DNA from: Candidatus Heimdallarchaeota archaeon
GTDB taxonomy: Archaea; Asgardarchaeota; Heimdallarchaeia; Hodarchaeales; Hodarchaeaceae
Length of the DNA stretch: 64,000 nucleotides
Reading direction: 5' to 3'
NCBI GenBank assembly: GCA_011364965.1
Contig: RDOB01000006.1
Span: 32,001 to 96,000 of the forward strand
Notes under the pieces: generated by a model
What the model saw: only the letters and a program-made list of their open reading frames with translations
Database searches by the model: none
What the model was told of the DNA's origin: nothing
Made by a program: the position numbers and the translations under genes
Shown here: piece by piece, positions 3 to 29,671 of the stretch
Layout of the letters: every line of letters begins with the position of its first letter
How positions within the stretch are numbered: the stretch's first letter is position 1

Positions 3-3000
3 TAGGGCATTCAAATAATTTTCTGCTTCTAAATCGTCTTGTGTTAAACCATAAAGCAAATTTAGTGATGGAGATGGGTTGGAAGACATTTCTGATATTT
101 GAAAAGCGAATTCTATTGCTTGATCATAGATCTCTTTTTGATTTTTGTAATGTGTACTTATTTTTAAGAGTAACGCGGATATAAAATCGACACTTTGATC
201 ATCTAGATCTTTCGATAAATTACGAATAATAGATAATCCCTGCAATACCTCAGTTCGCTGTAGATCGTACTGCTCCATTAATGAAGAAACTAAATTTACT
301 AATTTTAATCCATTTTCCAATTTTAGGGATTTGAGATTCGTAATATTCTCAATTAAAACTGTAAATAACAAATTAAACTCTTTTATGAGGCTTAATTCTT
401 GTGTTAATCGAATTGTGAAAAATACAAAGACTTCTTCTGCTTCTGGTATTTCAGATAGTGAAACAAAGAATAGTGATACTTGATCTTGGAATAGTTCTCG
501 CTGTTTCAACTTTATTGAGTCAATTAAAAGGGTAACATAAAAATCTAAAGATTGTTTCAGTGCGCTAATATCATCAATAAGTAAGTTAATATACATTCTA
601 AGAATAAATTTGCTTTTCGCTGGATTTTTTCTTACAAAAATGGGAACCAAGTCTCGTAATAAGGCAAGAGTTTCGCTAAACTTATTATTATCAATACCTA
701 GTGTGGCCATATCTAGTACTTGTGATAATGCTCCCTCAATATTTCCGCGACCAATTAATGCGTCGATTTTCTTTCGTTCTACATCTAAAATCTTTTCAGT
801 AAGGTTCAGGTGCTGATAAATCCGTCCTAGGAATTCTAAAAAATTCTTTGCTTCATCATATGATTTTGCTTCATTTTTACTGAAAAGAGATTCAATTACT
901 TCTTCTGCGAAAGTAATAATAGGTTGAGACATTTGAGAGACGTTTTCATTATATACGAGTGTTACAGGAGCCCATGATCTTTCTAAATAAATCATGGTAT
1001 ACGCAAGATTCTCAACACTCCATAGCTTTCGGGCTTCTGATAGAGCAATAAGGGAGGATTCTCTATACATCTCCAATCCTGTATAGATGCTCAGAGCTCT
1101 GTCTATTAAAGTAAAATAGGTATCATAGTCCTTTTCCGTAAATCTATTTTTCGCAACAGTAAGACATGTGTCTGCTATGGCCAAAGAATTTGTAGAAGCT
1201 GAACTTTCAGCTTTAGCGAGTTTCTCCATGCCTTCATCAATACGTCCAACCTTCAATAATGCTGTACCATAATCTTGATAGAATTGGATCATATCCCCTT
1301 CGGATCCTGTTTTTGAAATCAATTCTTTTGCCTCTGAGAACTGTATAGATGCTTTTTTATCGTCTTTTCCAATTAAACTCACTGCTCTTGTAATTTTGAG
1401 CTTTGCAGCATCCTTGGGTTGTCCTAAATCTACTAGACATTTGCTTAGGAAGTTTGTAAAACTATCTGCTATTTTTTGATCATCAAGATTTTCATAAACT
1501 GCATTCTTACTTGTTACGTAATCCAATAAAATTCCGATTTTTTCCAATAAGTTTTCTTGCATGAAAATCTCGAAAGCTTGTTTTAAATAACTTATACCCT
1601 TTTTGATATACCCTGCTTCAATTAAACGATTAGAAAGATCAAAAGCTGCGTCTCCTTGAGCTTCTTTCACTCCTAGATAATCATAGAGTTTCAAAATATT
1701 ATTAAAAAGGTCATTAATTAGATCTTCTTTAATATTTTTAGCCAGAGCTTCACTTATTTGATCTTCTAATCTTTTTATTACCTGAAGAACCTGTTCTTGA
1801 GGCGCTTCCCCCTCTATGAGCAATTTTGTTTGTTTTCCCCTGAAAAGAACTGCTTCTTCAAATTTACCATGGGAATGCAAAGCACTAGCAAATTCCTCAA
1901 TTCGTGCCATCCCACGTGTGGTATTCTTTGTTTGAACTAAAAAATCAAAATCCTTCTGATGAAAAGCAATAGCCTGATTATAATTCCCTTCTTCAAGGGC
2001 TTTCAATGCATATGTCGCATATAATGAATCATATCGATCGCTATCTTGTAATTGTAAATATATATTTCCTAATAGAGTCAGAAATTCCATTCTTATGGTT
2101 TCAGGAACCATTATTTCAAGTTTTGTGAATTGTGCGAGTAGAGCTTCTCCGTAAGCTTTTTTAATTTCTATATCAGCGCTTTGAATTAGATTTGCTCCTT
2201 CTTGAAGGCAGTTTAACTGTTCTTCATAATTGCCCCAAGTTGCATAATGCGCAGCAATTTTTAAGTTCAGCCAAGCAGCAGCTTGATATTCATCAACTTG
2301 GGAATATCTGTCTACCAAAAAGGTCTTAAGTTGTTCTAACGCCTTCCTCTCCCTTTTCTCTGCTAATTTTTCAATTTTTTGTTCTAAATATTCCCCTATT
2401 TGACTTATCGCGCTCATTCGCCTATTATTTATTAAAATTTCAAGTGATTTTTGAGTAAAGGGAAAATCATCTGCTATCACTTTTGTTTCTCGGAGATTAA
2501 TCCCAAATTTCCAAATAAATAAGGCAACTTCTTCAATTTCAGCTCCCCGATCTAATTTTCGTTCGATTTCTTCAATTTTATTGAAGAATTTCATCATCAA
2601 TAAAGAATCAATATTATCTACAGAAATCTTACTAGGTGAGGATAATACTTTCGCTGATTCTTTTTTACCTTCATTAAAAAGGTACTCAATAATCGCCCGT
2701 GGAACTGCTTCATCTCCGACGAGCTGTGAGTTTGAAATCGCTTCATCTATAGATTTGAATCCCATTTCTAGTTGTTGATGATTTAAATGAATTTTAGATA
2801 TTTCAAATAGGATTGTAGAAACTTCACCCAATGATTTAGCATTTAGGTGAGCTTCTCGAGCTTTAGCTATTAAAAGATCGGCTAATTTCCGTTTTTCTTG
2901 ATCTTGGTAATGATCTCGGAGGAATTGGATTCCAATTTCGGCATAAGCGACTTTTTCTATATTAACGGCCTTTAAAATCTGAGTTTCATCTTCAAATATC

Positions 3001-3629
3001 GTTCTTGCCTCGTCAAATAAGGCGAATCCTTTCTCTAGTTTATGATTTCTAATGTTCAATTCCGCTTCTGCTAAAAGGGAATTAAATAACTCTTCCCGAT
3101 TTTGCATCATATCAAAAATTACACGTGATTTCTGAAAAGACTCTTCTGCTTCCTCTTCACTTCCAGGTATCTTTGAAAGATTAATACCTACTTCTACAAA
3201 GACTTTTCCAGCTTGTAGAAATTCTATATTTCTTTGTGAAATCCCAGAGACAATTTCTCTGCATTCTCCCAAAAAGTATCTTGTTAAAGCTCCATGTTTA
3301 GTTAGATAATTATTATTCTCCTTTAAAACTGTAATATATTCTTCTACAAGAGGGATTGCGGCTGCTGCATATCGAAATAATTCTCTATTTGTTTTATTTT
3401 TTCCTTTTCTTGCTGAATTAATGATTTTTCTATATAAAATGATAACAGGTTCAGCTTTTTTCTCCTGTTGTCTCATTTCTATAGCTTTTTCAAGATAGGT
3501 TAATCCCTCCGAATAATCATTGTTTTCGATATAATAATCTCCTATATCAGCAGCAAGAGTAGCTGCTTCATCCCATTTTCTCTTTTTCTCTAATTTAGCT
3601 AATTTTTTGGTATTTCCTTCTATATCCAT
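3..3629 (-). CDS. Large TPR/alpha-SNAP-like alpha-solenoid protein, >1209 aa, 3' end runs off the window
   Basis: Not in the ORF track because there is no stop in the window. Manual translation from ATG at 3629 (MDIEGNTKKLAKLEKKRKWDEAATLAADIGDYYIENNDYSEGLTYLEKAIEM...) stays open to base 3 (...AENYLNAL). Repeated helical-hairpin patterns such as YGTALLKVGRIDEGMEKLAKA and LIEAGYIKKGISYLKQAFEIF. Confidence 0.85.
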   Translation of the reverse strand, partial: MDIEGNTKKLAKLEKKRKWDEAATLAADIGDYYIENNDYSEGLTYLEKAIEMRQQEKKAEPVIILYRKIINSARKGKNKTNRELFRYAAAAIPLVEEYITVLKENNNYLTKHGALTRYFLGECREIVSGISQRNIEFLQAGKVFVEVGINLSKIPGSEEEAEESFQKSRVIFDMMQNREELFNSLLAEAELNIRNHKLEKGFALFDEARTIFEDETQILKAVNIEKVAYAEIGIQFLRDHYQDQEKRKLADLLIAKAREAHLNAKSLGEVSTILFEISKIHLNHQQLEMGFKSIDEAISNSQLVGDEAVPRAIIEYLFNEGKKESAKVLSSPSKISVDNIDSLLMMKFFNKIEEIERKLDRGAEIEEVALFIWKFGINLRETKVIADDFPFTQKSLEILINNRRMSAISQIGEYLEQKIEKLAEKRERKALEQLKTFLVDRYSQVDEYQAAAWLNLKIAAHYATWGNYEEQLNCLQEGANLIQSADIEIKKAYGEALLAQFTKLEIMVPETIRMEFLTLLGNIYLQLQDSDRYDSLYATYALKALEEGNYNQAIAFHQKDFDFLVQTKNTTRGMARIEEFASALHSHGKFEEAVLFRGKQTKLLIEGEAPQEQVLQVIKRLEDQISEALAKNIKEDLINDLFNNILKLYDYLGVKEAQGDAAFDLSNRLIEAGYIKKGISYLKQAFEIFMQENLLEKIGILLDYVTSKNAVYENLDDQKIADSFTNFLSKCLVDLGQPKDAAKLKITRAVSLIGKDDKKASIQFSEAKELISKTGSEGDMIQFYQDYGTALLKVGRIDEGMEKLAKAESSASTNSLAIADTCLTVAKNRFTEKDYDTYFTLIDRALSIYTGLEMYRESSLIALSEARKLWSVENLAYTMIYLERSWAPVTLVYNENVSQMSQPIITFAEEVIESLFSKNEAKSYDEAKNFLEFLGRIYQHLNLTEKILDVERKKIDALIGRGNIEGALSQVLDMATLGIDNNKFSETLALLRDLVPIFVRKNPAKSKFILRMYINLLIDDISALKQSLDFYVTLLIDSIKLKQRELFQDQVSLFFVSLSEIPEAEEVFVFFTIRLTQELSLIKEFNLLFTVLIENITNLKSLKLENGLKLVNLVSSLMEQYDLQRTEVLQGLSIIRNLSKDLDDQSVDFISALLLKISTHYKNQKEIYDQAIEFAFQISEMSSNPSPSLNLLYGLTQDDLEAENYLNAL

Positions 3630-10861: not shown

Positions 10862-10874
10862 AATAAAAAAGAGG
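10862..10874 (-). terminator. Candidate oligo-T terminator after the giant surface-protein operon
   Basis: The minus strand reads CCTCTTTTTTATT about 20-30 nt after the stop at 10895. Confidence 0.4.
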
Positions 10875-10894: not shown

Positions 10895-13663
10895 CTAACT
10901 TGGAGGTTTCTTCCGTCCTATAATCTTCTTCTTATCACCAGTTCCACCAGAACCTCTTCCACTGAATCGATCCTTAAATTTATCGACAACAGTGTCTAAA
11001 GCTCCAGTTTTCTTTCCAGCATAGAGAATTGCTGCTCCCCCACCAACAGCTCCGCCAATAACAAGCGCGGGTCCTACAAAGCCCCAAGGATTAAAAGCTT
11101 TAGTAGTGGTTGTCGAACTCCCAGTTATAGCAGTTTGTCGCGTAATAAGCAGCTCCTCAGGTCCAATTGTCACATTAAGTTCATAATCTGTTGTCAAACC
11201 TTGGTTCATATATACACGGAAAAAAATATTTGTTGTATTATAGACTGTATAATAAGACGAGTTCATGGGGAATGGGCCAACTTCTTCCGTGTTTCCTAAG
11301 GTGAGATCGCTCGTGTCGAAGATTGTGCCAGTCCCTGCTAATAGCTGAAGATCTAGGTTTTGTCCTTGAGGGAATGAAAGTCTTATTAATATCGCTGATC
11401 CTGCTGGTACATTTACAACATAAAAATCATCATCTTTGACTCGCATACGTAAGCCTGATTCCATACGTGAGATCGCTTGGCCTGGGATAGGATTGATATT
11501 GAATTGAGAAGCCTCTCCAAGAAAATCATTGTCTTCCCATGGATCATCAGTTTCAATAATATCAATGGTGAGATTGTAAGCGTTTGCTTCACCGAAAATA
11601 ATCAGATTGATGTAATATCTTCCAGTGATATCAGCAGTAAATGTTATAGACTCGTTAAATGAGGTAATATTTCGCTCCGCTAGCGATTCATCAGGATAAA
11701 ATAGCGAAAGATCAATATCATTTAACTCTCCATCGGTTTCTTGGGCAAAGTATGATAAATTAACCGAAATAACATCCGTTTCTATCAAATACACATAGTA
11801 CCAATCATCACTACCATCTCGCAATATAAGGTCATCGTGATGTCCTTCTCCAATTGGTTTTGCTTCAACGGGGAAGTTGTTGGATTCATAATCGTCATCA
11901 AATGCATCTATAGCAACTGTTAAATTATAATCCACCCCAACACCATTATAAGACGCGCCTACGATTACAAAAAGGTAAACATCTGCTTTTCTTACAAGGT
12001 GAGTTACCTCTTCAAAATCACCAGTGATTCCCAATGATAAATCCAAAGTTGTCCCTTCTTGTGTATAAAGGCCGAGATTTAAGTCTGCTAATGCGTCATC
12101 AAAATCGATACGAATCGTAATGTTATCTCCTGATAATAGAGGGATAGCAAACCAATCTTGATCACCTTTTAAGCTATATAATCCTGCGAAAGGATCAGCT
12201 AAAGTAGGTGCATAAGTTCTGGACGTGGGTGAGAGAAGATATGCAGTATTAGGGCCATTATTATCTTCAGCCCAGTCATCTGCATCTAGTAATCTTATCG
12301 AAAGATTATAATAGCGTGGTTCAGGGTTGTCACTAGTAATATTCAAGTAATAAACACTTGTAGATTGCGCTCGATGCGGGCCAACTCGTCCTGCGCTTTT
12401 ATCAGGGCCTATGGGAATGGGTTTATCTTCTGCAATAAAGGATTGGATGGAATAATTCTCATAGACTTTCAATGTTAGATCTCCTATAAAGGAGAACCAA
12501 TAAATTTCCACAAGTAACCGTTGTTGAGCTGTTATTGAGAGGTTATAACTATCACTGTCATCTCGAGAGATTACTCTTGTTTGAGTTCCTAATGCGAGTA
12601 TTCTGTCATCAATGGTTGAATTTTCTCCATTATTTACCTCTATTTGATCTTCCATATCGATATATAGATTGTAGGTTTTTGTATGTTGCCCGCCATGATT
12701 AGTTCCATCAATATAGAGATAGAACCATCCACTATTGCCCATTGTAAATTTACATACTTCTGTTGTTGGTGAACCATCTCCACCGTCAATAAAGTCATAT
12801 TCTTTAGCTGAAAGATCATGATTGTAGAGAATAATATCAGGCCCTGCTTGACTCGGAACCCCGTTGGCACCAAATGCCGAAATAGTGATATTCATCCATG
12901 TATCTGCATAAAGAAAGATAGAATAGATATCAATGTTTCCGTACTCAGTGTAGGTATCACCTGATAGACGCATATTTTCATAAGTACCTGGAACAATTTC
13001 ATCATCGTAAATATTTATGTAAGATTGTTTATCATTGCTCTGTAAGCGTTCATATTTGTCCTCGTAAATAATAGACATATTATATGTCGTTGAATAAGGA
13101 ACTGTGGAATAGATCCCACTAAAAATCGGATTAACAACAGAGACATTGATAATAATATCTATAGATTCAGTAGTAAGGATTGGACCAACTAGTTCTTCTG
13201 ACCCTCCTGCTCGACTTTCTTCAATAAGAGTACCATCTGGATAGAGAAGTTGTAAATTGATAGCAGCAGTGAATTTGGAGTCTTCTGGTTGAAGAGGGAC
13301 AATTAATTGACGACTTGTTTCATTCCACGCGTTCGATTCATTCAACTCTATATAAACCTGAAAATAAAACCCTGGTGCAACTCTAAAGCTATAGTAATCG
13401 GGGTGGAGTGTACTAACGTTGAGTGGAGTAGCTGGGTTGTTGGTTAATGATTCGTTGATTGTAAATATCCAAGGTGTATTGAAATTATCGTTACTTGTCA
13501 CCGCACCTTCCCATACACTATCCCAATATGTTAGGGGAGATGCGGAACTTGTTTGAGGTGTTATCAACGTGGAGTTGAAGAGAAGCTGTATGAAGAAGAA
13601 AAAAACTATAAGTTGTGCTAATGACTTTCTAGTATGTAATTTATTAGATTTCATGGTCATCAC
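10895..13663 (-). CDS. Single-pass cell-surface protein with six PPC-like beta-sandwich repeats (probable start MKSNK at 13654)
   Basis: Signal peptide. Six units with (D/E)DxxExN(D/N)...DxDx(Y/F)...D(L/I)xLxLY...E patterns. Thr-rich linker, Gly-rich TM (WGFVGPALVIGGAVGGGAAILYAG) and an ~40-aa basic tail. GAGGTG SD-like site upstream. Confidence 0.85.
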   Translation of the reverse strand: MMTMKSNKLHTRKSLAQLIVFFFFIQLLFNSTLITPQTSSASPLTYWDSVWEGAVTSNDNFNTPWIFTINESLTNNPATPLNVSTLHPDYYSFRVAPGFYFQVYIELNESNAWNETSRQLIVPLQPEDSKFTAAINLQLLYPDGTLIEESRAGGSEELVGPILTTESIDIIINVSVVNPIFSGIYSTVPYSTTYNMSIIYEDKYERLQSNDKQSYINIYDDEIVPGTYENMRLSGDTYTEYGNIDIYSIFLYADTWMNITISAFGANGVPSQAGPDIILYNHDLSAKEYDFIDGGDGSPTTEVCKFTMGNSGWFYLYIDGTNHGGQHTKTYNLYIDMEDQIEVNNGENSTIDDRILALGTQTRVISRDDSDSYNLSITAQQRLLVEIYWFSFIGDLTLKVYENYSIQSFIAEDKPIPIGPDKSAGRVGPHRAQSTSVYYLNITSDNPEPRYYNLSIRLLDADDWAEDNNGPNTAYLLSPTSRTYAPTLADPFAGLYSLKGDQDWFAIPLLSGDNITIRIDFDDALADLNLGLYTQEGTTLDLSLGITGDFEEVTHLVRKADVYLFVIVGASYNGVGVDYNLTVAIDAFDDDYESNNFPVEAKPIGEGHHDDLILRDGSDDWYYVYLIETDVISVNLSYFAQETDGELNDIDLSLFYPDESLAERNITSFNESITFTADITGRYYINLIIFGEANAYNLTIDIIETDDPWEDNDFLGEASQFNINPIPGQAISRMESGLRMRVKDDDFYVVNVPAGSAILIRLSFPQGQNLDLQLLAGTGTIFDTSDLTLGNTEEVGPFPMNSSYYTVYNTTNIFFRVYMNQGLTTDYELNVTIGPEELLITRQTAITGSSTTTTKAFNPWGFVGPALVIGGAVGGGAAILYAGKKTGALDTVVDKFKDRFSGRGSGGTGDKKKIIGRKKPPS

Positions 13664-13672
13664 CTCTTCTTC

Positions 13673-16600
13673 CTATCCTGTCCCTCCATCTGGTCCAGTA
13701 TCTTGTAAGAAAGATCTCTCTATAGTTCCATGTAGAATATATATCATTCCATCGATTGTACCTACTGCAATGTCATCGACACCATCATTATTAAAATCAG
13801 CAATGACTGCAGAGAGAACAAGATGCTTTGGAATGAATGCAGCCCAGACCACTTGGGTAGGTTCTCTCTCTGTTCCACTTAAAGCAATAACATTGTCAAT
13901 ATTGAAGGAGATGATGTCCAATTGTCCATCATCATTGAGATCCGCAGTTAAATATCTTGGTAGATAGAAAATGGAACGATCTTCAAATGTCCATAAAACA
14001 CTCAGATCTCCATCTAAGCAGTACGTTCCATTCGCAAAGGATCGTATTGCTATCTCATGTAGTTGATCGGAGGGATCAAAGTTACCTGTTGCCATATGTG
14101 ACAGACGGAATGGAATATTCAAGTGGATTTTCTTATCTTCAAATATGGAACCAAAACTTGAATAATCGAGGCTGTCATAGATGATCACAGTTCCATTACG
14201 TACAATTACTGCTAGTTGAGGGTGTAGATTTGTAGTAAAGATACCCACTCTAAAATCATGCACTTTTATAAGGATACCATTGACTGGGTTACCATTATTA
14301 CCATTTAATATCCAGATTGAGTGCTCATAGATTTCAACCGCGAAGTCGAGAATTCCATTAGCGTCGTTCAAGAAATCAGCAACCTCAAATCTGGTGAATG
14401 GGCCAAAAGGTTGGATAAATTGCCATATTACTTTCCCATGTCCTAAAACTGGATCCCTAGTAGTATTATACAACATAATTCTACCAAAGATGCTACTGAA
14501 ACGATAACCCATACTTACAGCAAGCTCTTTCTCTGAGTCATGATTATAATCAACAAACTGCATTTGGTTAGCAATAATCAAACCCATGAAGTGCTGCCAA
14601 GAAGGTCTTCCAGTTTGACCGTTGATCATAACAAGCATACCTGAACGTAATGCAGCTGCAACATCTGAGTACCCATCATTATCTACATCGTCAATAGCGA
14701 CTTTCTGAATTGGTGAGCTGGTACGATATTTCCAGATGACTTCACCAGTCAAACCATCTAATGTTATTAAATAGCGACTTTTATCCGCAAAAATAACGTC
14801 TTCAATGTCATCATTATTGAAATCACCAGTGTCAATAGCATAAACAGGACCCCGAGTTTGATATGAAATACTTCCTTCAGGTATGGAGAGGTCAAGGGCG
14901 ATCGTTGGTTCATGATGGACAAAAGTCCAAGTACTTAAGGTGCAGGAGGTATTTAGAATGGCCACTTCCCCATAAGGACCGAAATTACCTGCTGCTACAG
15001 ATATTCCTGTTCCATGAAGCTGCATATATCCCAAGGGGGTCCCATAAGTGCCATCTAATGCAAAAATCGCTCCAGTATGGGGATTGTCAAGGGTATATTC
15101 TGTCAAAAGCAGAAGATCATCATCTTCAGAATCATGATCCAAATCACCCATTTTGATTTCTGTTGCATAGGTATCCCATAGGTTGTACTCCCAGAGGTAA
15201 ATTTCGGGATTAATTCCTGATAAAGCCACTAGTTTTGTCTCAACTTTCTCAGGATTCTTCCAGTAACTGAAGCTATCCATAACAAACCGACTATTCCATG
15301 TTGTATCTCCAGTTCCTGTTACATGAACACGATAGATTCTACCATAAGGATCATTCAATTCAACATATTGAACGGGACGATTCGGTATAAACGAAGTAGT
15401 ATCTATTAGATTTCCATCAATATCGTACGCTTCCCAGACGAAAAATCCAGAATAGGAACCAGTTGAGAAATATGCTGATACTGTGGTAGCAAAGTCGTCT
15501 ATAGTTATATAATTGTCTAATTCACGGGTGAAAATTGTTATATCCCCTGAATGAGGTGTATATATGGATGAACTTCCTGAATCCCAAGCAGTCCATCCTA
15601 AGTAGGTGCCAATATTAATTGGATCAGTGTTCGAGAAATTAATGCCTTGGTCAATATATGATTCTCCAACACGAGTGAGGGATACTTGATCTTCAAAAGT
15701 TAAAGTAACGTTATAATGCAGTTGTATTAATAGATCGTCATAGCTGTCTCCATTAAAGTCATATTTAATCGTTTCCTTAGCATTTCCAGTACTACCATCA
15801 AAAGAGGTATTGAATAACGCTTCAGTCATATTAGATGTACCATCATAAACATACATAACTCCAGATTCGAATATGATTATATCTTCTATGGAATCTTCAG
15901 TTATATCTAGCATTGTTGCTGTAAGACCATAGATTGAGCTATTTCGCAGGAATGTGTAGATTACTGTTCCATTATAATCGATTATAGCAACCGTTCCATT
16001 TCCAGAATCAGGATCAACCCCAGAAACAATTACTCTATCTTCCGTAGTCGAAATATGTGTAACATGTGTTGTAGGATCTGGATCCATGTGATCTGGGAAT
16101 GTATAGAACCATTCGGGTCTAGCATCATTGTTTCCATCATAGTTTCCATCTACTCCACTAACAAAGAAAATGCTATCCCCAATCCCTGTGAGAACATCTG
16201 GGATAGTATCATTATCAATGTCTTCGAACATCATTTCTGCATATTGCGTAGCATCTATTGCGAAGAAGAATACGTCATCGGGCCACCGTTCTATACCTGT
16301 TGTTCCTTCTAAAGCAATCATATAGAGGTTATCTGCTGTGATGTCATGTATAAGTGCAATAACTTCCTTTACACCGTCACCAGTAAGGTCTATAGTACGT
16401 AAATTAAGGACTATCGAGTTTTTAGAAGAAATACTTGTACTAGATAGGTTATACTCCCATATTAGTGATCCAGTTGCACCATTAACCGCACGAATCAGCG
16501 GAAAACCATTGTAACCTATACCGTCAGGATCCATCATGGCAAATACAATGTCATCCACACCATCAAGTGTAATATCCGTTGTGTCTGCAAGATGATCAGG

Positions 16601-19600
16601 TTGAATCGGTGCACTAGAAAACTCTCCTTGCTCATAATTCGTCCAGACTGGATCCCAATCGAAATAGAGGTAATCGGTTGCTGAAGGTTCCGTGAAAATT
16701 CCTTCAAACGCATAAACGTTTCCCTCAATACATGATACAACAAGTTCGTCCATTCCATTTCCATTGACATCATGGAGCTCAATATCAGTTGTTTCAGTAG
16801 CCAAGCCATCGCTATGCCAAGGTTGATAATAGAAAAGAACCTCTTCTTCGCCACCTGTGCGAGCTACTTCAACAAGGAATGCTTGATTTCCAGAAGCGAT
16901 AGCAATTTCACGTCTTCCATCTTTATCAGTGTCTCCTGTGTCAATGGCTCTGGCTTCTTTGAAATCAAATAGGCTGAAATTGGAACTGGGGTTCATACCA
17001 AAGAAGATATTATTATAAAATCCCCGATCAGGAGTCTGTCGGTCGCGATGGAAATCTTCTCCCCTGAAACCAACAGCTGCTGCTAAACCATACGAACCAG
17101 TGTTCTGATCATTTTCTGGATTATCAGTTCCTGTTGCATCCTCGCCATATGCAACGATTGATCCGCCATAGCTAGAGAGTTGTGTATCTTCTGTAACGAT
17201 GGGGGTATTATAGTTGATAGTAGGGGTGCTAACAGTCGTGGTATAGTAAATAGCGCTACCACCGCCACCTAGAGTTAAATTGACTAAAGTTCCGACTGGA
17301 ATAGTGTCTCCTTCGGTAGTGATATAGCTTACTTCTCCACCTCCAGTAGTAATACTTCCTCCAATATTTTCAACTAATCCAGAGTGGGCTGTTATGTCAC
17401 CCGAATTGAGTGTCATTGTGCTATCAGGAGGACTAACTGATTCAGCATACCCGACGCCTACAGTCAGTGTTGATGTAGTAGTCTGGGTAAGACTAATTTT
17501 AGCTAATGAGAAAAGATGATATTGTGCCATAAAGGAATAAACGAAACCACCTTCCCAGTGTGCCGAAATAGCTGGTCCAACAGAAATCAAAGACTTAACT
17601 AGGATAAAGGGATAGTCTTTCAATACTAATAGACTGAATCCATACAGTGGGAAAGAGATGTACTCTGCAAAAGGTGGAGTAGTTGTAACTGGTTCAGGAT
17701 CACGCCATGTGGCTCCATCGTCTTTACTATAAGTAATTTGAAGGGCACCAGAAGGAGCATAGCCATCCGCTTCGAAAATAATCATCAAAGTATGGTCAGG
17801 TGTTACCGTTTGGGTAATTGAGGGGTATAATTCGTCGATTGCATCCACAGTTGCACGGGAATAGGGAAAAGCTCCATCCCACATTGGTGTGGAGTTTGAT
17901 TTGGCAATCCAAAGATCATAATCAACTTTAGCTTCTTTAAAGCTCATACCAGTAAAAACTAGTACGACATCTCCACTAACTGATCTGATCGCGTCATGCG
18001 AGATTGCTTTATACCCGAGTTTGTTCCAAGTTTGATTATTCTCAAATGCACTATTACCAATATTTGGAATTCTAGCCTCTGGTCTAAGATTTGGAGCAGA
18101 AAAATCACCTTTCCAGTAAATTCCTCCATTTGAGGAGTTCATATAGGAAATAGCCACCCGCTGAGCAGTGTTGTTATTGTACTCCCAAACACTTGGATTA
18201 TAAACATAATTTCCATGGAAATCTTGAACTGCTAGATTACCACTTCCCGTACCAATACCCACCGCGTTTTCCCATGTGAGGCTACTTGGATTTAATTGCA
18301 GGAGCCAGATTCCTTCATATGTAAAAACATTAAAAGTCATCTTTGCACTAAATGCAATCCAAACACGACCGTCCTTTGCTTGGAAAAGGGAGGGATGAAT
18401 CTCATAATTGGAATAGGTCCACGACCAGGTTCCTGCGCCCGCAGTCACAATCTCCACTCCAAGAGTGACAATAGGTCCCCGCTGAGTCCATGTGTCACCA
18501 TAATCTGCGCTCGTAGCCCAATAAAGTCGATTTCCACCCTTGAATACCTGTATCCAATTACCATAATATAGAGTTGTGCTTACATTGCGTTGTAGTTCAA
18601 TCATATCAGTATTCCGTAATGCAAGCTGAACTTTTGTCTCTAAGTCAAACATTGCTTTAAGCTTGATAGTGGGGAAGTTGACATAGCTAGTTAAAATAGA
18701 TCGTTCTACATAATTGTTATTCCGCTCTGTTTCAGTTCCATTGTTTTCATAAATAACGATTCCTTTGAAAGTTCCGACAATTATCTCCTTATACTTGTCC
18801 ATGTCTTGATTATCGACAGTAAGGTCGTATACTGGGTTTTCGTCCATTAAATGATTAGGAGCCCACCATGTGTAAGCATATGTACCAATTTGATTTTCTA
18901 GGATGGCTACAAATCCGTTATATGTTCCCCACCAAGTCTTATTTAGTCCACCTATGATAATCTCGTTAAGAGTATCATTATCTGTATCAGAAACTACAAT
19001 AGATTCAATTGATAAAGCTCTAACTGCGGGGGAAACAAGAGGATTGCCAGGAGTGAAGTAACGACCTCTAGCGGGGAAAGGATTCTTTAAAAAATTCTCA
19101 TAATAATTATTTGAGCCGCTAGATTCAAATACAAAAAGAAAGCTACCCGCGGCAACAACAAATTCACCGAAACCGTTGTAATCCATATCCCCTGCATATG
19201 CAGCCGCTGTAAATTTATCGATTCCAAGATCTGCAAAAAGTGGAGCCCAAGCGGATTGTCGGAGGTCAGCTTGCCAAATAAGTGTGTATTCATCATCGAT
19301 AGACACAAATCCATCATTATTTTGCTCCCAGATAAATATAGAGAGACCTGCAGTTGCAACCATCTCTAAGAAGCCATCATTATCCATATCTAATCCAACG
19401 ACAATCTCTTCTACATCATCCCAAATAGTACGGTAGAATGTACCTGACACACCTTCTAGTTCTTCGTAAGCATATGGAGAGGTCAAGGAAAGTTCTTTAT
19501 GGGTTAGATCTTGTGATCGATAAGCACGCTTGTAAGTATTATTTGTTAGATGTTCAAAAACGTACAGGTTCTGGTCGTACGAACCGACAATTACTTCTTG

Positions 19601-22600
19601 TCTGCCATCTTGATCCATATCACCTGTTTCAATTGCAAGAGTCCAGCGAGCTAGTTCTGCTTGTGAATTCCAGACTTCAAAGACATGATACCCATAGTTA
19701 GCTAGCAGGTTACCATAACTGTCTGCACCAGATTTAAGATTGATTTCTAAGCGGGAAATGAGGGGATTTGTTCCTATTATAAAGGCATTGTGATTTTCAT
19801 ATTCTGCTAGCAATTTAACCATCATACCTGTGTGATTATTGTATGTGGTTAAATGAGTGAGTACCCCTGTAGCTGGATCAATGGCGAATGTAGGAGTTGT
19901 GAGGTTATTAAACCAGAGACCACCCCAACTATTTGTATAAAGCCATTTATTTTCTACCCATTCAGGAGCCCAACGAGAGCCTTTATTCTCAAAGTAGGTT
20001 GCTCCTTCTCGATTAGCGTATCCTACGGTGAGATCTAAGTCACCATCACCATCAAAGTCATATAATTCTGGAGAATTGTATAATTTGTCTGTCGCTTTTA
20101 GGTTCATATCACGGAAGTATTCGGTATCTAGCCTAAACATGGTATTATGGATATTTTCGATGAAATACAACCGCCCATTTGTAAGGACAAGATCAGAATC
20201 CCCATCCGCGTCAACATCACCCCAAGCAACCTCAGGAACGACCAAAGACTTTTCAAGAGCTCGCCAAAGGAGACCAGTAATCTCATGTTCAGCCAATTCG
20301 AATCTACCTACATATGCTCCGATAGGACTTGCAGCCAAATCGAATGTATAAACATCCAACCCAGCCATAGATTGTTGTTTGTTTGGATCAATGGGATCAT
20401 ATAGCTGATCTTTGTCCCCCCATCCAAGAAACATCAGCTCTGGGAAATGGTTTGGATCTTGATTGAAATCAACGAAAGTAGGGCTAATAGACATTCCATT
20501 GTAAAAAGGGTTCGTATTTACGGGATAGAAGAAATAATTTCCGAGAACTGACCAAGTTTCTACTAAGGAGGGAAATACCACTAGTTTTCCATTATCAGTT
20601 CCCACAACAATATCGTTCGCAGGGACATTAATATCAACTATTTCAGCATAAGGCCAATAATCTTCTATCACAGCGAAAATATTTTCCCAGAACGATTTCA
20701 TTAACGAAACATGATCCATACTGAAATAATTACCTAGGATCCCAGGTAACCAGCTCTGATCAATTTCAAGCTGGCGTAATTCTTCATTCACATTAAAAAT
20801 ATCGCTGCTAGATTGATTATATAACCAAGTAGGGATTTTACCGGGGCTTTTCACCTCAGTTATCGCCCAAATGTTGGTACCTTGTGTGTAAGAATCATTT
20901 TTGTACGAGTTCCAGAGTAAATCATAGGCCTTTGTTGCTGTATTATAGCGGAACATGATGATTTTCCCGTCTACAGTCCCAAGTACAATCTTTTTACCTT
21001 CACTTTGACCTGTAGTATAAGCTTTGTAGTAATCTAGATCAAGTGAACCAATAGTGATAGATGAAGCAGTGTCCATGGGACGGTACATAACTGGAGCATA
21101 ACCTCCTTTAATTTTATAATACCCACCGTCCGTTACATTAATCCGCATATATCGGAAATACGCCCAATGTTTGGAAGAGAGCACAGGGTCAATATCTAAG
21201 AGAACATCATCATCACCTGATTTCCATTGAATTTTGATATTTTCATTGGGTACACGAACCCATTGTTGAGTATCAGGAGAAATCTCAAATGAAATTTTGT
21301 TTAAATTGGGATCATATGCATCATGGAAACGAAGAGTAACATCATAACCAAGAGTGGTTCCAGGTACAGCCCATAAACCATCTCCCATGACTTCTTGGTC
21401 ATTACCCCAATCAACTATTGCACTAGCTATGGAATCACGGGCATTAAAGGTTGTATAGTTTTCTGCAGGGGGGTGACTTATTGGAGGATCAGAAATGTAA
21501 ACACCATCTTCACCCCAGGGATCAAGTTTGCGATGAATAGCCATAGAGGTGTTTTTAGGCCATTGAGGTTCCCAGACATAACGAGCATAAGGTTCAGTTA
21601 TGAAGATCTTAGTAGTATCATTCTCCCAATACACATGCAGATCGGACATATTCTCAATAGGGAGGAAATTCCCCGAGGGTTTCATAGATCCATTAATAAA
21701 AACGGTCATTTCTTGGTAAAAAGTATCGTTGTAGGGCATATACGTACCCGAAGGAATTCTAGTAAGGTTATTGTTTGACCAAGTCATCCAATCAATATAA
21801 TGGTTAAGGTAATGTCCTAGACCTTCAAAACCACCTAACTCCCAGGAGTCGAAAGGTTCCCAAAGCTGGTGAGTGAGATAACAACCACCTGCAACATTTG
21901 GATCCCAATTGATTACATAAACCCCCTGACCTTGAGCAATGTAAACCACTTCATCATGAGGATCATTATCTAAGGAATCCACTTCCATTTGGGTAACGGG
22001 TTTCCAGGATATATTTCCTGAATCCCAATGATAACGATAGGAGTTGTCTTGTGTTAACGGCCAAGGTTTACCATTAATTGACAAAACTGTGCCATTATTT
22101 TCGTAAATATAAACTCTCCCTAGACTCGTACCGGCGATGATTTCTGGGAGGGCATTATAATTGGTATCACCAACATCAATGGAGTAAATTTTTTCTCCAA
22201 CATTGATTGTAGCCTTCTCTGCATATTCAATCCAATGTTGCTTTGAAAATGGATATCCAGAGTGATTGATGTATTCATAAACATGGATTTTTCCATCCCA
22301 TGAACCAGCAATGATGTCAGGAAGATAATCTTTGTCTACATCAGCAATTTTCACACCCCAGACCTGTTGAATCTTGGGACTTGTCCAAACATGCACGAAT
22401 TGATTTTCCATGTTATCAAAGGGATCATAGATATGTTCCTGTTCAAATACGTAGACATGACCGTCAGCAGAGCCAGCTACTATCTCCAAAAATTGATTAT
22501 TATCTGTATCACCAAAATCAATAGAGATAACATCCCCCTGAATGATTTGATCCCCTGAATCCCACACTTTATCGTAATTCCTAGTGTGACCATTCCAACG

Positions 22601-29671: not shown

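Follow-up and report, generated by a model that had tools for sequence, protein, structure and literature searches.

Cultured Asgard cells carry 'complex surface proteins' and round-tipped filaments at the interfaces with their partners, whose identity is not established, and such surface structures have been proposed to mediate cell-cell contacts relevant to eukaryogenesis (PMC9834061; 10.1101/2025.02.26.640444). According to the same reports, cultured Lokiarchaeum ossiferum has no S-layer and the S-layer of the Hodarchaeales strain SC1 is tetrameric. Eukaryotic signature proteins with integrin repeats are also mentioned for Asgard archaea, in a passage of PMC9258230 that cites Liu et al. 2021. 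Here we describe three adjacent minus-strand open reading frames (ORFs), in the order A, B and C, which fill positions 10895-29671 of a 64,000-nt stretch of DNA (hereafter the window) on contig 15 of the 2.97-Mb, 87 % complete genome of a Candidatus Heimdallarchaeota archaeon; the closest database relatives of the window carry the labels Hodarchaeales, Heimdallarchaeota or Promethearchaeota. Gene and genome comparisons show that A and B constitute a genuine module of two genes for giant surface proteins, which is conserved in Asgard archaea, restricted to them and so far undescribed; in the order Hodarchaeales, it includes C as a third gene. The sequence-only reading that preceded this analysis knew of no described system with this layout, and full-text searches, which did not reach Liu et al. 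2021, likewise yielded no paper describing the A-B pair. In public records A is a 'hypothetical protein' and B an 'FG-GAP/VCBS/PQQ-like repeat protein'.

Like the alpha and beta chains of metazoan integrins, A and B represent paired type I membrane proteins with short cytoplasmic tails on both, of which B possesses Ca-binding FG-GAP propellers and A a long stalk that bears an N-terminal alpha/beta domain. Unlike integrins, B comprises multiple propellers and has 3-4 times the size of an integrin alpha chain, A-B have neither an EGF/PSI stalk nor NPxY or GFFKR tails, and A contains helical and beta-barrel-like domains that are absent from integrins. In particular, the alpha/beta domain of A lacks a VWA/betaI match: no VWA domain is found in A by Pfam or NCBIfam, and no VWA chain is among the best 50 VIA matches of the N-terminal domain, an absence that is not decisive alone. 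The acidic residue after the first strand is not conserved, being Asp in most sequences and Gly in this genus, and the S-x-S of the MIDAS motif (D-x-S-x-S) is missing. With no VWA domain and no MIDAS motif, A was rejected as an integrin-beta.

The type 3 repeats of thrombospondin/COMP and the bacterial TSP3 proteins (Myxococcus CglD, MtsC/MtsD) share with A the tandem D-x-D-x-D-G-x-x-D loops with a 23-aa period, and the proteins that carry such repeats function in extracellular adhesion or cohesion. The likeness of CglD and MtsC/MtsD to A is limited to the repeats, whereas head, anchor and partner gene are unrelated; in line with this, A scores 143.7 bits against the NCBIfam model of CglD (cut-off, 400) and 25.5 bits against that of MtsD (cut-off, 800). 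RTX adhesins (LapA, MpIBP) and the C-terminally anchored surface glycoproteins of archaea are similarly very large and rich in sequons, with acidic Ca-repeat stalks, distal binding domains and anchoring at one end, yet they differ from A-B in repeat type, secretion and anchoring and show no conserved two-gene pairing or fusion.

Linkage and fusion of genes A and B

Among 301 genomes sampled across the phylum, the A head occurs in 89 genomes from 12 families and B in 80 genomes from 11 families, all 11 of which are shared. A and B are adjacent on the same strand, mostly in the direction A to B, on approximately 50 contigs of this sample. Within the genus of the window, the A-B-C order is found on every contig that is long enough (seven genomes, and partly in two more), with identities of 74-76 % for A, 57-63 % for B and 41-49 % for C, and it is seen again in another family of the order (f2, G023:C119). 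Six genomes from other families of the class have A followed by B, with no C found. Families of Heimdallarchaeia other than that of the window keep the A-B order, as do genomes labelled Thor, Loki or Odin. Consecutive NCBI locus tags confirm the adjacency in Hodarchaeales (ACTSW1_01770/01765), Odinarchaeota (ACFFD4_09050/09045) and cultured Lokiarchaeum ossiferum (NEF87_004127/004126, and XEO79399/XEO79398 in a second assembly). Additionally, two genomes of the same genus, G010 and G011, contain a second, diverged pair (35-36 % identity) directly downstream of A-B-C in the reversed order B'-A' (L015:1845-18004, corresponding to G010:C1 ~1644800-1661000; G011:C4 139153-154268); both B' and A' have C-terminal anchors, and a 610-aa exported protein is encoded next to them. 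The three genes form the one tight unit that the sequence-only reading had seen, and A-B linkage reaches far beyond this genome. Of the conserved synteny that this reading had proposed to check, the A-B part holds across the phylum, whereas the part concerning C holds in Hodarchaeales and Kariarchaeaceae only.

A single open frame spans both A and B in genus g50 of family f11 (Thorarchaeota). Two such fused frames, of 4881 aa (L024:1079-15724) and 4897 aa (L025:3628-18321), were read, and both consist of the A ectodomain, a transmembrane (TM) segment, a Lys/Ser-rich linker of ~65 aa, a second hydrophobic segment that is the counterpart of the B signal segment, the B ectodomain and a C-terminal TM segment. 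Seven more fused clusters of 4348-4887 aa combine TSP3 with FG-GAP repeats and keep the TM-linker-TM hairpin, and their charged linkers of 50-80 aa fall into four unrelated sequences. Such a hairpin would place both ectodomains outside the cell. Gene fusion is a classical sign of two proteins acting together. Taken together, the linkage across the phylum and the fusions argue for joint action of A and B at the cell surface.

C has a narrower distribution. It was found in 14 database clusters of 894-971 aa, all named ones of which belong to Hodarchaeales or Kariarchaeaceae, and it lies directly 3' of B wherever found (~12 contigs). In other lineages, B is followed by an unrelated gene or by none. 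Specifically, the gene 3' of B in G034:C8 (L021:16267-18765) occupies the position of C and is unrelated to it; its product of 832 aa is a NosD/right-handed beta-helix protein that has a signal segment and is anchored at the C terminus. Because of this unrelated gene, we rejected C as a universal third subunit; C is a lineage-specific addition of Hodarchaeales and Kariarchaeaceae and stands outside the conserved core.

Domain architecture and membrane anchoring

All three proteins are predicted to be exported to the cell surface. Signal peptides and TM segments were judged by reading of the sequence and by Kyte-Doolittle hydropathy (19-aa window). Each protein starts with a hydrophobic segment that follows basic residues (residues 16-34 in C; Table 1 for A and B), A and C end in a hydrophobic segment with a basic tail (WKKKEGGL in A, a Gly/Lys/Arg-rich stretch in C), and the B of the window shows no C-terminal hydrophobic segment by hydropathy and has no such tail. 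Along with these hydrophobic ends, an acidic composition and an excess of N-x-S/T sequons count as signs of surface location, the observed sequons being 1.4-2.3 times those expected from composition (17 versus 11.5 in A, 39 versus 28 in B and 22 versus 9.6 in C). Loops of the type D-x-[DN]-x-D-x3-[DN], which are likely to bind Ca, number 22 in A and 11 in B, compared with 1.4 and 0.5 in shuffled sequences. No NCBIfam model for an archaeosortase sorting signal (PGF-CTERM and relatives) matches A, B or C at E <= 0.01, the sequence preceding the C-terminal TM segment is not conserved between lineages, and no catalytic domain exceeds any Pfam or NCBIfam threshold in any of the three. The individual signal peptides, the C-terminal anchors on the outer two proteins with none on the middle one, the many sequons and the TSP3-like repeats of A, all of which the sequence-only reading had reported, were recovered in this analysis. 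Its Asp-rich Ca motifs in all three proteins apply to A and B, whereas C contains no D-x-D-x-D-G motif, the scan for the looser motif having covered A and B only.

B belongs to the FG-GAP, integrin-alpha-type propeller proteins. It matches FG-GAP_3 (PF13517) with 109.8 bits (cut-off, 26.9), FG-GAP (PF01839) with 34.1 bits (cut-off, 22.1), the BBS7 beta-propeller with 40.4 bits and Itfg2 with 35.3 bits (cut-off for both, 27), and contains the 11 Ca-loop motifs mentioned above. The second of its repeat clusters has motifs at positions 932 and 985, and D-x-D-x-D-G loops also at 1131 and 1208. The FG-GAP clusters extend over residues 100-350, 930-1260, 2020-2240 and 2730-3095, with unassigned inserts between them. 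The N-terminal propeller is the most conserved part, with 51-68 % mean identity among 16 phylum-wide sequences compared with 10-45 % elsewhere in B. Of the combined FG-GAP/BNR propeller protein proposed earlier, the FG-GAP part is well founded; the BNR part comprises two Asp-boxes (S-x-D-x-G-x-x-W at 1501 and 1762), but BNR_2 (PF13088) reaches 19.7 bits, below its cut-off of 31.4. Precomputed Pfam annotation adds lamin-tail (PF00932), PA14 or C-type lectin (PF00059) domains to some B-like propeller proteins from Hodarchaeales and elsewhere (P0204 and P0212), and the propeller scaffold of B appears to be reused with differing binding modules.

The missing anchor of B is a local state. Orthologues and paralogues of B in seven genomes end in a C-terminal TM helix with a basic tail, and 85 of 102 full-length-like relatives have a C-terminal TM segment. 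The B of the window aligns with its orthologues up to ...GPDGGTG and then ends, while the orthologues run on for 40-60 aa in a tail that often overlaps the start of C. No remnant of this tail was found in the other reading frames of the window, and the B of one congeneric genome (G017) is likewise without a clear C-terminal helix. Because the orthologues have this anchored terminus and the B of the window stops 40-60 aa early, the anchor is ancestral and was lost in this genome. The earlier picture, in which two anchored proteins hold a secreted propeller protein, is therefore not the design of the family. The anchorless B gene is otherwise intact and conserved, which is compatible with retention of B by its partners.

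A carries a stalk of TSP3-type repeats, which matches TSP3_bac (PF18884) with 47.6 bits (cut-off, 25), and its C-terminal hydrophobic segment is kept in 33 of 36 relatives. In one homologue of A (L027:11830-18369, G106:C4), the TM segment is followed by a long Lys/Ser/Thr-rich cytoplasmic tail that resembles the linker of the A-B fusions. The head in front of the stalk (residues 50-1230) was not recognised by Pfam, NCBIfam, PDB phmmer, ESM Atlas or PDB profile searches. Specifically, phmmer against the PDB gave no match at E <= 1, ESM Atlas returned nothing usable, and PDB profile and Pfam searches with the N-terminal domain produced noise only. The AF2 model of residues 45-1240 (pLDDT 66.8) divides into three parts. 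The first, an alpha/beta domain (residues 64-244, pLDDT ~80), has the CHAT domain of SAVED-CHAT 8tl0 as its best VIA match (Z 10.5, 161 aa, rmsd 4.2); legumain (Z 8.9) and metacaspase (Z 8.5) also match, and LacI/periplasmic-binding-protein (PBP) folds tie at Z 9-10. Across 14 diverse sequences only Y74, W141, G161, P241 and G246 are invariant, and a catalytic dyad was sought in vain, no His or Cys being conserved in these 14; thus, if this domain has a clan CD fold, it would not be an active protease. We consider it a candidate pseudo-enzyme-like domain, either CHAT/caspase-like or of another Rossmann-like fold. The second, helical part (~314-940) shows both the lowest conservation in the head (19-44 %) and the lowest model confidence.

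The third part of the head, a beta-domain, is its best conserved portion, with 44-56 % mean identity across the phylum. Its model comprises ten long strands (pLDDT 74.9 when folded alone), each of which is lined by Ile/Leu/Phe on one side and polar on the other; overall, Leu, Phe, Gly and Ile are abundant in the domain. In Foldseek searches, FepA and autotransporter translocators rank first, and in an exhaustive VIA search all of the best 50 matches are outer-membrane beta-barrels (Z 8.4-11.7), such as CymA (Z 11.7) and Bdellovibrio OmpA and BrkA (both Z 10.0), over 155-233 aligned residues at 3-14 % identity. Like CymA, autotransporter translocators, TonB-dependent receptors and BamA/TamA, this domain is modelled as a meander of antiparallel amphipathic strands of 14-19 residues. 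Unlike them, it has no sequence similarity to such barrels, is placed distally on an extracellular stalk and occurs in a single-membrane host, for which we know of no BAM machinery. In the whole head, large amphipathic beta-sheets come after a helical array, an arrangement also reminiscent of large lipid transfer proteins (LLTPs; lipovitellin, MTP, apoB), and lipovitellin and MTP rank first in Foldseek (E 7.8e-4 to 4e-3). However, the head lacks the N-terminal LLTP barrel. As the TM-score is ~0.1 and searches with the beta-domain alone do not reproduce the match, the LLTP reading is considered below only as part of a competing explanation. The resemblances to barrels and LLTPs are structural leads, not memberships. 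The structure searches on domain models that had been suggested as a check hence gave barrel-like and CHAT/PBP-like matches for the A head and no firm fold membership. The head is new, combined with known repeat types.

The beta-domain is confined to this family: among 1.84 billion proteins, it is represented by 52 clusters, all with TSP3 repeats. A scan of 185,579 species genomes with a narrower alignment as query gave 46 loci, which, one contig excepted, are labelled Asgard or 'uncultured archaeon'. The exception (L031, JAGLOY010000192.1, 1645 bp) lies in a bin named 'Candidatus Aegiribacteria' and encodes a beta-domain 89 % identical to that of the window. Most likely, an Asgard contig was misbinned here.

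C is a PPC protein (PF04151, 33.6 bits; cut-off, 25.9). When its repeats are compared singly with Pfam, repeat 5 is the only one of six that passes, and repeat 6 is weak. With repeats 5 and 6 as the basis of a hidden Markov model (HMM), repeat 4 is recovered at 1e-7, and the other three join after iteration only. All six units share the pattern D-x-(Y/W)-E-x-N-(D/N) ... D-(W/Y/F)-(Y/F) ... Y-N-L. The six PPC repeats of the sequence-only reading are accordingly supported by Pfam for repeat 5, with the remainder depending on an HMM and iteration or scoring weakly.

Gene layout, feature coordinates and flanks

The genes are tightly packed and co-oriented, as had been noted before. The stop codon of A abuts the ATG of B (gap, 0 nt), 9 nt separate the stop codon of B from the GTG of C, and GGAGG-like, Shine-Dalgarno-like sites precede both B and C. 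The public gene call of C begins at Met4 (919 aa), which widens the B-C gap to 18 nt. Oligo-T is an archaeal termination signal, and a T6 run lies 25 nt 3' of the C stop codon (Table 1). Upstream of A, a 431-nt A/T-rich spacer with several TATA-like A/T boxes, none assignable as the promoter of A, separates the cluster from a divergent epimerase gene. Genes for UbiA and PHP proteins follow 243 nt downstream of the cluster, and the other neighbours are housekeeping genes. The G+C content is 38-42 % within the cluster (window 14000-26000) versus 33-36 % in its flanks, which may be an effect of the Asp/Gly-rich repeats. At the edge of the window, an open-ended minus-strand ORF (3-3629, at least 1209 aa) has no Pfam match at E <= 1e-5.

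Table 1. Positions in the window of genes A, B and C, their predicted parts and the putative terminator
Feature	Coordinates	Strand	Basis
Gene A, 2219 aa, predicted type I membrane protein in which a Ca-binding stalk connects head and C-terminal anchor	23012..29671	-	ORF, translation, Pfam TSP3_bac
A 21-46, putative signal peptide or signal anchor	29534..29611	-	Kyte-Doolittle, 19-aa window, up to 1.97
A 64-244, alpha/beta domain, CHAT/caspase-like or periplasmic-binding-protein-like	28940..29482	-	AF2 and VIA
A ~314-940, ~25 predicted helices	26852..28732	-	AF2 secondary structure, pLDDT 40-85
A 944-1214, amphipathic long-strand beta-meander, outer-membrane-barrel-like	26030..26842	-	Domain model and VIA
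A 1239-2064, TSP3-type Ca-binding repeat stalk, 22 loops, 23-aa period at start	23480..25957	-	Pfam PF18884, motif count
A 2180-2198, predicted TM anchor and short tail with three Lys (WKKKEGGL)	23078..23134	-	Kyte-Doolittle 2.36
Gene B, 3112 aa, FG-GAP protein with several propellers; lacks the C-terminal anchor of its family in this genome	13673..23011	-	ORF, Pfam, orthologue comparison
B 11-34, signal-peptide-like; equivalent to the second membrane span of fused A-B proteins	22910..22981	-	Hydropathy, fusion comparison
B 100-350, N-terminal FG-GAP propeller (BBS7/Itfg2-like), most conserved part of B	21962..22714	-	Pfam
B 930-1260, FG-GAP repeats with D-x-D-x-D-G loops	19232..20224	-	Pfam FG-GAP, 43.8 bits on this piece
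B 1480-1800, BNR/sialidase-like region, two Asp-boxes	17612..18574	-	Motif; BNR_2 below cut-off
B 2020-3095, further FG-GAP/PQQ-like propeller repeats, insert at ~2400-2700	13727..16954	-	Pfam
Gene C, 922 aa, six PPC-like repeats (40-840), predicted TM segment (862-880) and basic tail	10895..13663	-	ORF, Pfam, HMM
T6 run, 25 nt 3' of the C stop codon, likely end of the transcription unit	10865..10870	-	Sequence reading

Proposed surface assembly and competing explanations

We propose that A and B are probably two subunits of a conserved, Asgard-specific surface assembly that mediates contact with partner cells or surfaces, and that C would be a third subunit added in Hodarchaeales and Kariarchaeaceae. 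Ancestrally, each of the three would be held in the single cell membrane by its C-terminal helix, and in the present genome the anchorless B would depend entirely on its partners to remain at the surface. A would hold a distal head, made of the pseudo-enzyme-like alpha/beta domain, the helical array and the amphipathic beta-barrel-like sheet, on a TSP3-type stalk of ~820 aa, which Ca would stiffen so that the head is kept away from the membrane. B would provide a platform of several Ca-binding FG-GAP propellers and a sialidase-like propeller. The two would most likely associate via their best conserved parts, that is, the beta-domain and proximal stalk of A and the N-terminal propeller of B, while the propellers and the A head would bind external ligands. 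Through this assembly, the cell or its protrusions would make contact with surfaces or with the cells of partners. Gene structure, domain content, phylum-wide linkage, the fusions and the loss of the B anchor are shown here, whereas physical association of A and B, Ca dependence and the contact function are inferred. The amphipathic sheet of A suggests lipid or membrane contact, though its hydrophobic face may instead be buried in a soluble fold.

Several points weigh against this proposal. Adjacency and fusion show functional coupling, not which function is coupled; an A-B interface is putative, and surface localisation and binding are predicted. Confidence in the structure models is moderate (pLDDT 67 and 75). 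The A and B trees (a quick tree and a FastTree, respectively) share only those clades that are expected from species relationships. Finally, no match was obtained in about half of the congeneric genomes or in many families, and the assembly may thus be dispensable or have been missed in incomplete bins.

A, B and C could instead be separate proteins of a surface coat, glycocalyx or S-layer-associated, that are co-regulated and co-inherited without a specific complex, the fusions being accidental read-through between abutting genes, which the topology would tolerate. The stop codon of A abuts the start of B, so that stop loss would be an easy event, an own anchor is the normal state of each protein, and the repeat modules of all three are common in independent surface proteins. 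However, adjacency has been kept over phylum-scale divergence, a paralogous B'-A' pair stands beside the main cluster in two genomes, fusions persist in several lineages with differing linkers and the anchorless B is kept intact, which together make separate coat proteins an unlikely explanation. Another proposal, to which we give a rather slim chance, takes the A head for a lipid- or membrane-engaging device whose sheet, shielded by helices, would bind lipids or insert in another membrane, such as the outer membrane of a bacterial partner or a neighbouring protrusion; A-B would then serve as a membrane tether or as a lipid-exchange or fusion machine and not as a simple adhesin. The strict hydrophobic/polar alternation of the strands, the abundance of Leu, Phe, Gly and Ile in the domain, the transmembrane barrels that make up all of the best 50 VIA matches, the leading position of lipovitellin and MTP (E 8e-4 to 4e-3) and the high conservation of the beta-domain within the head all point this way. 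Yet the Foldseek TM-scores are ~0.1, the VIA Z values are only moderately above the background of 7-8 quoted by the tool, the model leaves barrel closure undecided, and helices could bury the hydrophobic face in a soluble fold. Moreover, to our knowledge, no beta-barrel membrane protein has been described in a single-membrane archaeon.

An extracellular apparatus for nutrient capture or degradation, built from the sialidase-like propeller, the PPC modules and the clan-CD-like domain, would agree with the two Asp-boxes and weak BNR_2 match of B, with PPC as a module found on secreted proteases, with CHAT, legumain and metacaspase among the fold matches of A, and with the peptide lifestyle of cultured Hodarchaeales (10.1101/2025.02.26.640444). 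We judge it highly improbable, as neither His nor Cys is conserved in the N-terminal domain of A, the BNR_2 match of B falls short of its cut-off, Pfam and NCBIfam thresholds are passed by no catalytic domain, and PPC is a binding or accessory module that is non-catalytic.

With the two-subunit contact assembly as the preferred reading, the earlier view of the locus is corrected in two respects: the propeller protein is normally self-anchored, and the third gene is lineage-specific. A conserved beta-barrel-like domain is also unexpected in a single-membrane organism. As a hypothesis only, the A-B pair, which is present in Lokiarchaeum ossiferum and Hodarchaeales, offers a concrete candidate for the surface structures seen on cultured Asgard cells. 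In its boldest and rather improbable form, A-B would be an Asgard invention that couples integrin-alpha-like propellers to a stalked, membrane- or lipid-engaging head, forms the 'complex surface proteins' or tipped filaments and links archaeal and partner membranes. If this is true, the lineage from which eukaryotes arose would possess a machine dedicated to syntrophy or cell contact.

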